Source of the DNA: a bacterium
GTDB taxonomy: Bacteria; UBA8248
DNA: 64,000 bases
Assembly (NCBI GenBank): GCA_965204535.1
Contig: OZ241996.1
Span: forward strand, 1,472,001 to 1,536,000
Direction of reading: 5' to 3'
The translations under genes and the position numbers were made by a program. Position 1 is the stretch's first letter, and each line of letters opens with the position of its first letter. Below the pieces are notes generated by a model. It had not been told where the DNA came from. It did not search any database and was given only the letters and a program-made list of their open reading frames with translations. Positions 3,685 to 6,854 of the stretch are shown in pieces.

Positions 3685-4122
3685 TCAGAGTATCGGGGAG
3701 AGCCAGCCCAGCAGGCCGCCATAGATCGCATGGGCGATCACGGCGGTCTGCCACGCCCTGGGGTGGAACTTTCGGCTGAAAAAACCGTGCCCCGTGATGA
3801 GCGGGTTGAAGACGCATTGGGAGAAGATCAGGAGCACCCCGCCCCAGATCAGGCCGCGCACGACGTTTGGCCCGGCAAGATACCCCGCCGCCCAGGTGGC
3901 GTATATCAGGCCGAAGATAACCCCGTTCAGATGCACGGCGATGAAGCCGAGCGCGTAAGGCGGATTCCCCTCGTACGCCTCGCCGAACAGGAGCATCGAC
4001 ACCCCCTTGCCGAAGTCCAGCCTCGCCATGCCTATCTTGTCCGCGATCAGGGCGAAGACGAGATGGGCGTAGGTGGCCAGAAAAGAGGCCGCGCAGACGA
4101 CGAAAAAGTCACCCGGGTTCAT
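3685..4122 (-). CDS. Hypothetical multi-pass membrane protein (145 aa)
   Basis: ATG at 4122 preceded by AGGAGG; about four hydrophobic segments, with several His residues in or beside them. Confidence 0.7.
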   Translation of the reverse strand: MNPGDFFVVCAASFLATYAHLVFALIADKIGMARLDFGKGVSMLLFGEAYEGNPPYALGFIAVHLNGVIFGLIYATWAAGYLAGPNVVRGLIWGGVLLIFSQCVFNPLITGHGFFSRKFHPRAWQTAVIAHAIYGGLLGWLSPIL

Positions 4123-4205
4123 AAATCCCCTCCTCGCTCGGCGGTGGAATCCTGAATTTTCCAAAAAATTCTTGCAGGGCGCATCCCCGGCGGGGAGGCG
4201 TCCCC

Positions 4206-4352
4206 ATGAAGAAGAGAATACAGGCATCGGCGCGCACTCGCCAAGCCCTGTCCGACCTGATCGAAGGCCGTCTGTCGAGTCCCGATGCGCGAACCGATCA
4301 GATAAAACCGGCCACGCGGCTCATCGTATAAGAAGCCCTTGAAGTGGAAAAC
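4206..4352 (+). pseudogene. IS256-family transposase N-terminal remnant
   Basis: GGAGG RBS, then MKKRIQASARTRQALSDLIEGRLSSPDARTDQIKPATRLIV*EALEVEN, resembling the IS256-type N-terminus (..ATRLIVEEALE.E); internal TAA at 4329-4331; rest of the gene missing. Confidence 0.6.
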
Positions 4353-4417
4353 GACATCAGGCAGCCCTCGGCCGATATGCGCCCAAAGAAATTACCCGGC
4401 ATCTACGGTACTTGACC
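4346..4417 (+). repeat. Element right-end repeat, copy 1
   Basis: ggaaaacgacatcaggcagccctcggccgatatgcgcccaaagaaattacccggcatctacggtacttgacc, closely similar to 5551-5621. Confidence 0.9.
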
Positions 4418-4550
4418 GTCGGCATGCCATTCCATCCGCAAAAAGTAACAAATGGAGACCATGAACGGGTCGTAGTTGTCGTCGGGCTTGGTTGTGGTGG
4501 GATACGAGTCGTCTTTTGTGTCCTACTTCTTCCCAGACTTTGGCTCCATC

Positions 4551-4589
4551 TTGTCGCTTGGCCTATTACAGGTTATATTACTGGTAATA
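4551..4589 (+). promoter_or_regulatory. Putative sigma70 promoter with overlapping operator for the TA operon
   Basis: TTGTCG-17 nt-TATATT. Inverted repeat TATTAC-TG-GTAATA (4576-4589) overlaps the -10 box. Confidence 0.5.
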
Positions 4590-4604
4590 ACAAGGAGGTC
4601 ACTC

Positions 4605-4907
4605 ATGAGTGATATATCCCGGAGACGTGCGACAAAAAAATATCGGAGCCGTTTGGCTGAACGCGGCATGGCCCGCTTCGAGGTCCTCGGGCGCGACGCT
4701 GACAAAGAGCTTATCCGCTCGTTAGCCAGACGTTTGGCGGAAGACTGTCCGGAAGCCGATCGTCTGAGGAGCGTCGTCAGCCAGGGCGTCACGGGGAAAC
4801 CGCCACGGAAAGGCGGAATCCTTGAAGCGCTGCGCCGCTCGCCGCTCGTCGGCGCCGAAGCCATTGCATCCCGTCCATTCGAGTCCGGTCGCAAGATTGA
4901 TCTGTGA
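4605..4907 (+). CDS. Putative antitoxin (VapB-like partner), 100 aa
   Basis: AAGGAGG RBS before ATG at 4605; small basic protein whose stop overlaps the PIN toxin start (GTGA). Confidence 0.75.
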   Translation: MSDISRRRATKKYRSRLAERGMARFEVLGRDADKELIRSLARRLAEDCPEADRLRSVVSQGVTGKPPRKGGILEALRRSPLVGAEAIASRPFESGRKIDL

Positions 4908-5338
4908 GCCGGTATCTTCTTGACACCAATATCATCAGCAGCGTCACGAAGCCTGCGCCACCGCAGTCTCTGCTGACCTGGATGGCCGGGCAGGCTGACG
5001 AAAATCTCTTCATATCCGCGCTCACCATCGCCGAGGTCCGACGCGGCGTATTGGAGAAGCCTGCCGGCCGCAAACGTGATCAACTCGAAGCGTGGTTCAC
5101 AGGTCCGGAGGGGCCACCGGCTCTTTTTGTTGGCCGCGTCCTCCCCTTCGACGAGAAGGCCGCTCTCGTATGGGCAAGACTTATGGCGGAAGGCAAGGCG
5201 CAAGGCCGTTCCCGCAGCGCGCTCGACACGATCATCGCGGCGATTGCGGAAGCCAATGAATGTATCGTCGTGACCGACAATGAAAAGGACTTCATCGGCG
5301 TCGAGACGTTCAACCCGCTTCGAAACACGGCACGATGA
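4904..5338 (+). CDS. vapC: PIN-domain ribonuclease toxin (VapC/FitB-like)
   Basis: YLLDTNI, SALTIAE, LPFD, D..IAA and VTDNEKDF PIN motifs. Confidence 0.9.
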   Translation: MSRYLLDTNIISSVTKPAPPQSLLTWMAGQADENLFISALTIAEVRRGVLEKPAGRKRDQLEAWFTGPEGPPALFVGRVLPFDEKAALVWARLMAEGKAQGRSRSALDTIIAAIAEANECIVVTDNEKDFIGVETFNPLRNTAR

Positions 5339-5392
5339 AACAGCGAGTGCTCAGCGTTCAGTTCGTTATCGCGAGTCACCAAAGAGAACAAG

Positions 5393-5560
5393 ATGTCGAA
5401 GACCCGGGTAGAGTGGACGGATGCAGCCTGGAATCCCGTGGCGGGATACGCCGTTCCGACAACCGGCTGCACCGATTGTTACGCCATGGCGATGCGAAGC
5501 GCCTGGAGGCCATGAGGTCGAGAAATATGCGGGAGCGACTCGCCGGAGCGGGAAACGACA
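5393..5560 (+). pseudogene. DUF5131 (phage Gp37/Gp68-like) N-terminal fragment, frameshifted
   Basis: MSKTRVEWTDAAWNPVAG...GCTDCYAMAM, continuing after frameshifts as AKRLEAM.VEKYAG.TRRSGKR; matches the IEWTD.TWNP..GC....GC..CYA signature. Confidence 0.7.
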
Positions 5561-5621
5561 TCAGCCAGCCTTCGGCCGAAATGCGCCAAAAGAAATTATC
5601 CGGCATCTACGGGGCTTGACC
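5551..5621 (+). repeat. Element right-end repeat, copy 2
   Basis: ggaaacgacatcagccagccttcggccgaaatgcgccaaaagaaattatccggcatctacggggcttgacc, followed by c+CGCTCGGC. Confidence 0.9.
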
Positions 5622-5672
5622 CCGCTCGGCGAATTCACCCCTTGAATCACGCACCTTCGACATCCTTTGCCC

Positions 5673-6854
5673 CTACCCGGTGTACTCCAGGATGTGCATC
5701 CCCGCTCCGTTCCGGTCGATCAGGTAGAGCAGGCCGTTCTCGTCCATGCCGATGTCGTTCGACTGGGCGTAGTCCTTACCGAAGTTCATTTCGGGGATGT
5801 AGTGTCCGACTTCCTCAGGCTTGAACGGATCCGACACATCGATGGCCCGAAGCCCCGAGTTGAAGTACGTCAGGAAGACAAGGTCCTTCCAGGGGCCTTC
5901 CGCAGGGAGATATTCAAGTATGTTGTGCGCCCCGAAGCGCCCTCCCCGGTTCATGTTCTCTTCCCTGTCGGGGATGTAGGTGGAGACGGGTATCGGGTTC
6001 GTCTCGTCCCGGATGTCCACCACCCACATGAACTGGCTGTGTTCGTAGTTCTCCCGCGCGTTCGCCTCGTCCGTCACCACCACGTACGGCCTGTCGCCGA
6101 GCGGCCAGACGGTATGCGTGGAGCCGACGAAGGGCGGCGACCAGCAAAGGCGCCCCACGCACTCGATGTTTCGCAGATCTGCGCAATCGAAAATGCCCAT
6201 GCCCGCCCCCCAGAAACCGCAGTACATGCGATCTCCGCGAATGGTGGCGGGGCCGTGGCACGTCCACGAACGCGAGAAATCCTCAGGCTCTTCGTACTCG
6301 TAATCGAGACTCAGATCCTGCTGCGGCAGACCGACGATGTTGAGCACCTCGGGCTTGAGAGGATTCGTGATGTCGAGAGTCCACATGACCCGGTTTCGCC
6401 ACCCCTCGGCATGGTTCGGCAGAAACGCGAGCCCGCGTTCGTTGTCGACGCCGAAACGATGCGGCCCTGTGCCGGGCAGATCGAAAAAGCCGACTTCCTT
6501 CGGCTCCGCCGGATTCGAGATATCGAAAATGCACAGGCCCGACCGCGCCGCCTCTCCTTCAGGCGTCTTGAGTCGCTCGTGATTCACATAGAGCAGGTCG
6601 TCCCCCACGATGCGAACCTTGTGATTGTGCAGGCCGGGGGGCGCGAACACCTCGGCGATGCGTCTCGGGTTGCTGGGGTCGGATACGTCGTGGACGGTCC
6701 AGCCCTCCGGTCCGTCGTAGCTCGCCGTTCCCACCGCGCCCACATAGGCGTATCCGTTTTTCACCTCGACGATGCTGCCCCCGCCCCATGCCGCGTCCTG
6801 GTCGTGTCCTACGAGTCTGAAATTCTTCGATTCAGCCGGTGCGCCTTTCGCCAT
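5673..6854 (-). CDS. LVIVD-repeat beta-propeller protein
   Basis: Recurring (I/V)(F/H/I)D(I/V)S(D/N)P..P.EVG units and RFGAHN; ATG at 6854 after CAGGAG. Confidence 0.8.
   Translation of the reverse strand: MAKGAPAESKNFRLVGHDQDAAWGGGSIVEVKNGYAYVGAVGTASYDGPEGWTVHDVSDPSNPRRIAEVFAPPGLHNHKVRIVGDDLLYVNHERLKTPEGEAARSGLCIFDISNPAEPKEVGFFDLPGTGPHRFGVDNERGLAFLPNHAEGWRNRVMWTLDITNPLKPEVLNIVGLPQQDLSLDYEYEEPEDFSRSWTCHGPATIRGDRMYCGFWGAGMGIFDCADLRNIECVGRLCWSPPFVGSTHTVWPLGDRPYVVVTDEANARENYEHSQFMWVVDIRDETNPIPVSTYIPDREENMNRGGRFGAHNILEYLPAEGPWKDLVFLTYFNSGLRAIDVSDPFKPEEVGHYIPEMNFGKDYAQSNDIGMDENGLLYLIDRNGAGMHILEYTG

Follow-up and report, generated by a model that had tools for sequence, protein, structure and literature searches.

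Tn4001 is an example of a composite transposon of the IS256 family. ISCth4 (PMC7780238), ISPsy17 (PMC3189936), and p-MULT 1 (PMC3942029) serve here as comparators for this family, and target duplications of 8 or 9 bp are described for it (PMC3189936). In composite transposons and their relics, e.g., Tn6330 (ISApl1-mcr-1-ISApl1), IS-derived ends lie in direct orientation and one duplication surrounds the unit. IS loss at microhomologies leaves the Tn6330 cargo fixed, and about one whole IS (~1070 bp) is deleted at 2-4-bp microhomologies (10.1101/2023.06.07.543989). Cargo fixation by IS decay is known from another report (PMC9330008). MITEs and mobile insertion cassettes are non-autonomous, internally deleted ISs with terminal repeats and a duplication (PMC5444012, PMC3189936), and cassettes with a passenger coding sequence are known (PMC5444012). 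Toxin-antitoxin (TA) modules are passengers in 39 of 190 Tn3-family transposons, PIN toxins included. These type II pairs lie inside the transposable unit, beside the resolution site of autonomous elements, and are proposed to stabilise it. How Tn3-family transposons acquire them molecularly is stated to be unclear (PMC7157771).

An IS256-bounded unit of 1479 bp is found at 4143-5621 of the window (the whole 64,000-nucleotide stretch of DNA that was analysed). It works like a composite transposon or a mobile insertion cassette with IS256 ends and is not an autonomous IS. Its likeness to the IS256 family lies in a parent element, whose transposase exceeds the family's cut-off, whose terminal inverted repeats (~26-29 bp) are imperfect, and which makes duplications of 8 or 9 bp; unlike the family, the unit itself has a truncated transposase, one left and two right ends, and cargo. 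As in composite transposons, the cargo lies between IS-derived ends in direct orientation and one duplication surrounds the whole unit. Its left side has a short IS and its right side just a 75-bp right end, which may or may not derive from a second IS. Unlike in Tn6330, it is the interiors that are lost, through microhomologies of 8-10 bp, while the ends stay; the cargo here is a TA-like pair. The unit resembles MITEs and mobile insertion cassettes in having no transposase, IS-derived ends, and a passenger. It differs from them in being known from a single site, with a degenerate left end, an extra internal right end, and no sign of spread. Compared with the Tn3-family passengers, the TA pair here has IS256 ends around it and its own promoter-like region, and no transposase accompanies it. 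In the literature searched (the IS databases ISfinder and TnCentral lay outside the search), no IS256-bounded TA cassette was found.

Very probably this unit transposed once and is now a fossil. It belongs to an ordinary class of elements and is preserved in a condition that can be read clearly: the parent IS, the donor locus, the empty site, and both junctions are recoverable. As such it is a natural record of an IS256 element that carried a TA pair to a new chromosomal site in a sponge-associated bacterium and probably lost its mobility there, and one readable case of TA acquisition from a transposon family other than Tn3.

Layout of the unit and its parent IS

On the forward strand the unit begins at 4143 with the sequence GGTGGAATCC, which opens a degenerate IS256 left end and leader (4143-4205) with a 43-bp deletion relative to the parent. 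A 5' remnant of the transposase gene follows (4206-4345, ~85% nucleotide identity to parent copies), and then a first right end, R1 (4346-4417, 65/69 identical to the nearest parent copy). Next come captured upstream DNA (4418-4604), a putative antitoxin gene of 100 aa (4605-4907), a predicted PIN-domain (VapC/FitB-like) toxin gene of 144 aa (4904-5338), and a 5' fragment of a DUF5131 gene (5393-5552). The second right end, R2 (5547-5621), is the outer end of the unit and is 62/69 identical to both R1 and the nearest parent copy. R1 and R2 belong to a 75-nt direct repeat (4343-4417 and 5547-5621, 88% identical). The first-pass annotation, made from the sequence alone, had listed a weak left end, a 41-codon transposase N-terminus broken by TAA, two right ends, a TA pair, and a DUF5131 fragment; all these parts are present where it had put them. 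No known RNA family is matched inside the unit at gathering score.

The 41-codon reading frame occupies 4206-4331 and ends in TAA at 4329-4331. Forty-seven transposase codons are kept from the 5' end and 22 from the 3' end, and no DDE transposase is encoded, owing to a deletion of 1095 bp and the TAA stop. The 41-aa peptide alone matches no Pfam family. The IS256 origin that the annotation had proposed is supported by a full-length parent in the same genome, an intact 1414-bp element (G000 C1:197454-198867) whose transposase scores 254.6 bits on NF033543 (cut-off 150) and whose ends match those of the unit: 19/26 for the left end, and 22/26 and 23/26 for R1 and R2. The full-length partner transposase for which it had suggested a search is also present, since two parent copies encode an intact 435-aa protein. 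The transposase 5' end has seven other matches in the window genome, one of which is probably a contig-end duplicate.

The terminal inverted repeats of the parent (GGTTAAGTCC and GGACTTGACC) match each other at 25 of 29 positions. A subterminal TGCTGGA is found in all 12 near-full-length parent copies (from seven genomes) and is lost from the left end in the window. Among these 12 copies, three have exact 8-bp duplications, three have exact 9-bp duplications, one has 8/9 bp, and five have none. Relative to the parent, window 4143-4417 (275 bp) lacks the 43 bp of the leader and the 1095 bp of the interior. The latter deletion is in frame and is joined at an 8-bp repeat, GAGGCGGA, the sole exact 8-mer that is found both in the first 300 bases of the IS and in its last 160.

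Several other IS256 copies of the genus have features of their own. Orthologous copies in the window genome (G000 C1:750862-752202) and its sister G002 (C1:2061315-2062726) have the right flank in common but not the left, and no duplication, which points to an IS-mediated rearrangement. Twin remnants in the window genome (C2:361721-362284 and C2:914671-915234, locus L026) carry the same two internal deletions and lack ends. Group II introns lie in or against the IS256 5' end in G020 (L070:2202-2500, L071:2225-2312) and G022 (L029:4127-6121). In G020, two left ends break off at IS position 36 and continue into similar sequence, with an RF02005 match in L070. In G022 the intron lies directly against an IS left end of 100 bp, immediately 5' of that genome's TA pair.

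An assembly artefact is ruled out: one or both flank junctions are bridged by short-read contigs in 7 runs of DNA type, which come from 6 studies (possibly the source study, and five others). None of the listed contig pieces covers the entire stretch. Three of these runs are labelled sponge metagenome.

No second copy of the short IS or of the cassette was found in the window genome, in 50 other genomes of the phylum, or in a plasmid search. A pattern scan of JGI metagenomes gave two hits, both unrelated and matching just the 23 pattern bases. A mobile MITE phase was rejected on these samples, which are incomplete, and no such phase of the short form is documented. Elements of the IS256 family transpose via a circular intermediate; no end-to-end joint is listed in 8 sequencing runs, whose assembled contigs are uninformative on rare circles.

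Target site and flanking genes

The 8-mer CGCTCGGC is found at 4135-4142 and 5623-5630. Note that the right end stops at 5621 and a single C (5622) precedes the second 8-mer, which makes the duplication 9 bp long, with one mismatch between the left copy (4134-4142, TCGCTCGGC) and the right copy (5622-5630, CCGCTCGGC). In the sister genome the left copy is CCGCTCGGC and the right copy is CCGCTCAGC, with the mismatch at another position. Position 4134, the first base of the left copy, is C in the sister and in three other strains (contigs of three of four sequencing runs), so the ancestral duplication is taken to be a perfect 9-mer. An 8-bp duplication plus a stray base is ruled out by the 9 bp seen in the sister and in three runs. 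The annotation was right about a target duplication and one base short in its length, which it had given as 8 bp.

The flanking genes are matched in 22/22 genomes of the genus, and the whole region is spanned by the sister alone (96%). The annotation had advised looking for an empty site in relatives. Among 19 non-self loci, 17 are cleanly empty, one is filled (the sister), and one is uninformative. In the 17 empty loci, the two flanking genes are 43-68 nt apart without an insert, and one copy of a similar 9-mer is present in the empty alleles of four relatives. A search across 51 genomes of the phylum (50 and the window genome) finds the element in the window genome and the sister only, and the filled allele in the sister and in strains from the sequencing runs is always at one and the same site. 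Since the duplication encloses the left end and R2, it was this pair of ends that moved together, on one occasion. The proposed insertion as one unit is borne out by the 9-bp duplication around the whole of it and by the empty site in relatives. Neither a lack of IS256 similarity nor the lack of a clean empty site, the two outcomes named beforehand as speaking against that proposal, is found.

The spacer between the flanking genes (window 4123-4142 and 5631-5672) has 37-66% identity to this allele within the genus, and the genes on both sides are well conserved. One contig of run X8 matches as far as the outermost base of R2 (5621) and continues into unrelated DNA; it may represent another IS copy or a second site of the unit.

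The element lies between two intact host genes on the minus strand, a 145-aa membrane-type protein gene without a Pfam family (3685-4122) and an LVIVD-repeat protein gene (5673-6854). It is inserted 20 nt before the start of the membrane gene, whose ribosome-binding site is left in place. The dN/dS of the membrane gene is 0.15 against the sister and 0.08-0.16 against 11 empty-site relatives. It had been suggested that the insertion may have split an operon. The gene layout agrees with this; harm to the membrane gene is not seen, as the gene is intact and under selection as in the empty-site relatives. A weak minus-strand promoter-like sequence (TTGTTA-17-TGTAAT from 4593) matches 9/12 positions and is not called by the promoter scan. 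A hybrid promoter from the TTGACC at either right end was rejected, as neither has a -10 box at 16-18 nt. Likewise, a minus-strand terminator-like hairpin at 5561-5579 is not above chance (3 sites vs 1.6 +/- 1.3 in shuffles).

Captured cargo and the TA pair

Window 4418-5562 matches a locus in another genome of the genus, G017, at 89%. The match runs from exactly the first base after R1 (4418) to the R2 junction, and that locus has no IS there. The DUF5131 gene is intact in G017 and G022 (259-268 aa), and in G017 tcmP comes after it. The cargo is a slice of a TA / DUF5131 / TcmP locus that is intact in relatives. In the window, the fragment starts at 5393 and matches PF07505 (E 3e-8), which bears out the frameshifted DUF5131 fragment of the annotation; one frameshift is common to the sister and the second is private to the window strain. 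The fragment passes into R2 on a 9/10 microhomology (GCGGCAAACG vs GCGGAAAACG). Nothing useful on DUF5131/TcmP was found in the literature searched.

The order TA-DUF5131-TcmP recurs at 3 of 80 loci, most of them distant; at 73 of the 80 the available sequence was long enough for it to be seen. TA, DUF5131, and tcmP form a recurring four-gene module, found in the genus (L028:1125-3135, G017) and at the three distant loci (L142, L145, L146). At none of the 80 homologous TA loci is an IS256 transposase matched nearby. Close toxin homologs exist in 7/23 genomes of the genus, one with an internal stop. Their contexts differ, which indicates that the TA module circulates in the genus. Without these IS ends, the pair is present in five or more further contexts in the genus. 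The closest free copy (G011, L030:6006-7005) ends ~80 bp from a tRNA-Ser gene, like the edge of an integrated island. Among plasmids, 59 records match, and the best ones cover the TA genes alone at 66-70%.

The predicted toxin is a PIN protein (PF01850, E 8e-13, 49.5 bits vs a cut-off of 23.6), and its nearest solved structure is FitB (PDB 2h1o, E 5e-20). Its D7, E44, and D108 align with acidic positions of FitB; among 58 homologs, D7 is invariant and E44 and D108 are present in at least 90%. At the fourth acidic position the toxin has N126, where FitB has D. The sister's toxin (L034) has Ser at codon 48, where all 58 aligned homologs have Gly, and its activity may be reduced by this change.

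A small gene adjoins the 5' side of the toxin gene in 78/80 homologous loci and overlaps it by 4 or 1 bp in 70/70 clean-ORF pairs. From its position, its conservation, and what is established about type II TA loci, it is a putative antitoxin gene. Antitoxins of such pairs have a DNA-binding fold such as RHH, AbrB, HTH, or Phd; this protein has no match in Pfam, NCBIfam, or PDB sequences, and its monomer model (pLDDT 71) has no fold match. One neighbour cluster in the Atlas is auto-named Antitoxin, and RefSeq plasmid homologs are annotated as hypothetical. A promoter-like TTGTCG-17-TATATT lies at 4551-4579, and the palindrome TATTACTGGTAATA at 4576-4589 is a likely operator. By inspection, each of the 25 homologous upstream regions has a TATAT box ahead of its ribosome-binding site, and the strict palindrome pattern is found in 7/25. 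The pair is like VapBC and FitAB in its PIN toxin with conserved acidic residues, its small overlapping upstream gene, and the palindrome over the -10 box. What sets it apart is the upstream protein, for which Pfam, NCBIfam, and PDB give no match.

Between the window genome and the sister, the two TA genes differ by 10 and 19 synonymous and 5 and 7 non-synonymous changes. Their dN/dS is 0.16 and 0.11 (pooled p 3e-10), in keeping with the intact antitoxin-PIN pair of the annotation. By this comparison, purifying selection acts on the TA genes; stops, frameshifts, and deletions are found in the IS parts and in the DUF5131 fragment. X20, the one RNA run examined, contains only TA pieces that are 94%-like and no element junction, and so is uninformative on expression.

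Proposed order of events, and decay of the unit

Chances are about even that the cassette arose when a shortened IS256 beside the TA locus gained a second right end and that the product then jumped once. In the proposed order, an IS256 copy would have inserted 187 bp upstream of the antitoxin gene and would then have lost 1095 bp between its two GAGGCGGA repeats. A template switch from DUF5131 (GCGGCAAACG) to the IS (GCGGAAAACG) would have duplicated the right end downstream of the toxin. Intact IS256 transposase, supplied by another copy, would then have joined the left end with the outer right end, and the unit would have inserted between the LVIVD and membrane genes. Its ends would later have decayed while the TA pair persisted, probably because loss of the pair, e.g., by recombination between R1 and R2, would free the toxin. 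If the short form were shown to have jumped, the element would document gene capture by an end-copying route that needs only one IS, and would gain in importance.

This order draws on the positions of the two internal junctions. Both lie on microhomologies of 8-10 bp and both are within IS positions 1335-1347. A full IS offers 22-23 possible microhomology clusters, of which this site is one, and the parts retained in the short IS offer 4-5, so the coincidence favours the short IS coming first by ~5-fold. The two right ends also have two changes in common (CCGGCATCTACGG), and the first of these occurs in none of the 19 other right ends listed; this too speaks for the proposed order, though two sister IS copies would account for the shared changes equally well. 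The first-pass annotation had placed the deletion before capture and jump. Its one-unit move holds; its order is favoured only to that extent, and no other copy of the short IS is found.

A somewhat less probable origin is an ordinary composite transposon that became shorter at its present site. It would have moved by its own transposase, with TA-DUF5131(-TcmP) enclosed by two full IS256 copies of the same orientation. One later microhomology deletion would have taken out the interior of the left IS, and another would have removed the DNA from DUF5131 up to the final 75 bp of the right IS. Composite formation followed by decay is the common route, and no transposase in trans is required. The genus has many internally deleted copies of the parent IS (with 5-7-bp microhomology in two of the four examined), no mobile short IS was found in the window genome, the 50 others, or the metagenome pattern scan, and the mcr-1 transposon Tn6330 is reported to lose its flanking ISs at short microhomologies (10.1101/2023.06.07.543989). 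However, two independent deletions would need end points no more than ~10 bp apart in an IS of 1.4 kb (1 of 22-23 sites). Other right-end remnants begin at scattered IS positions (~690 to 1370), and the junction has no strong DNA hairpin. A deletion hotspot or hairpin at IS ~1340 finds no support, the local fold being -1.5 to -4.6 kcal/mol vs an IS mean of -5.9 kcal/mol.

It is unlikely, though conceivable, that the remnants also have a present function. A transposase-less IS256 would have copied its own right end into a neighbour gene via the 10-bp microhomology, its remnants would since have been domesticated to serve expression of the membrane gene, and the TA pair would block deletion between R1 and R2. 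Such self-end-copying would parallel, in a bacterium, the way non-autonomous Mutator-like elements capture genes. Functional remnants, if real, would also raise the importance of the element.

An improbable variant has one full-length IS256 gain its second right end by microhomology duplication, move autonomously as a ~2.6-kb form, and lose its transposase afterwards. A single IS with a cis-acting transposase would then supply the one left end and the two related right ends, but the coincidence of the junctions is left unexplained and the 2.6-kb form is present in 0/51 genomes. Hardly credible is a TA island that came by another route, with independent IS remnants on its two sides and a chance flanking repeat: the pair does occur in other contexts of the genus without these ends, and the window TA genes are no closer to the sister's than to the tRNA-Ser-adjacent copy of G011, but the 9-bp repeat lies flush against both the left end and R2 (in 200000 trials, 55 random 9-mer pairs at the same spacing agree to within one mismatch), its length is one made by the parent IS, and the empty sites, four of them with one similar 9-mer, largely refute such an origin.

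After the single jump of the favoured reading, decay spared the TA genes. Among the indels listed in 8 runs, none is inside these genes; those listed lie in the IS, spacer, and DUF5131 parts and include, in other strains, a 17-bp deletion in the leader, several 1-bp indels (among them 1-bp deletions in R2), and indels in the spacer. Old changes number 10/141 in the transposase remnant and 9/158 in the DUF5131 fragment, loads too alike to tell which of the two was disabled first. Decay has gone furthest in the left end (9/48 old changes), which points to a long time after insertion in which the deletions, too, could have taken place; both observations speak against the proposed order. With its left-end motif lost and no second copy, the element is likely to be immobile now. 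The transposase of ISCth4 binds end base pairs 14-25, though a partly substituted recipient end still integrates in vitro (PMC7780238).

The IS parts of the window genome and the sister differ at 9/344 bases. For comparison, 968/9461 four-fold sites in 62 genes (0.017-0.21 per gene) and 295/4771 sites in short non-coding stretches differ; the nominal p for the IS parts is 2e-7, with sites that are not independent. Old shared vs post-split changes are 38 vs 16 in the remnants and 5 vs 41 in the TA genes. The informative sites that relate the window TA genes to those of the sister and G011 number 6, 8, and 3 and do not settle the fork. The simplest reading is that the genes and the TA pair recombine with the genus pool and the junction DNA cannot, in which case the remnants would show the true clonal distance. 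Alternatively, the low divergence of the remnants may reflect constraint on them. Either way, distances in the flanking genes cannot date the insertion.

In run X13, from a more distant strain, the element is at the same site, and 125 bases (5495-5619) are replaced by 135 other letters. The replaced stretch covers the tail of the DUF5131 fragment and most of R2.
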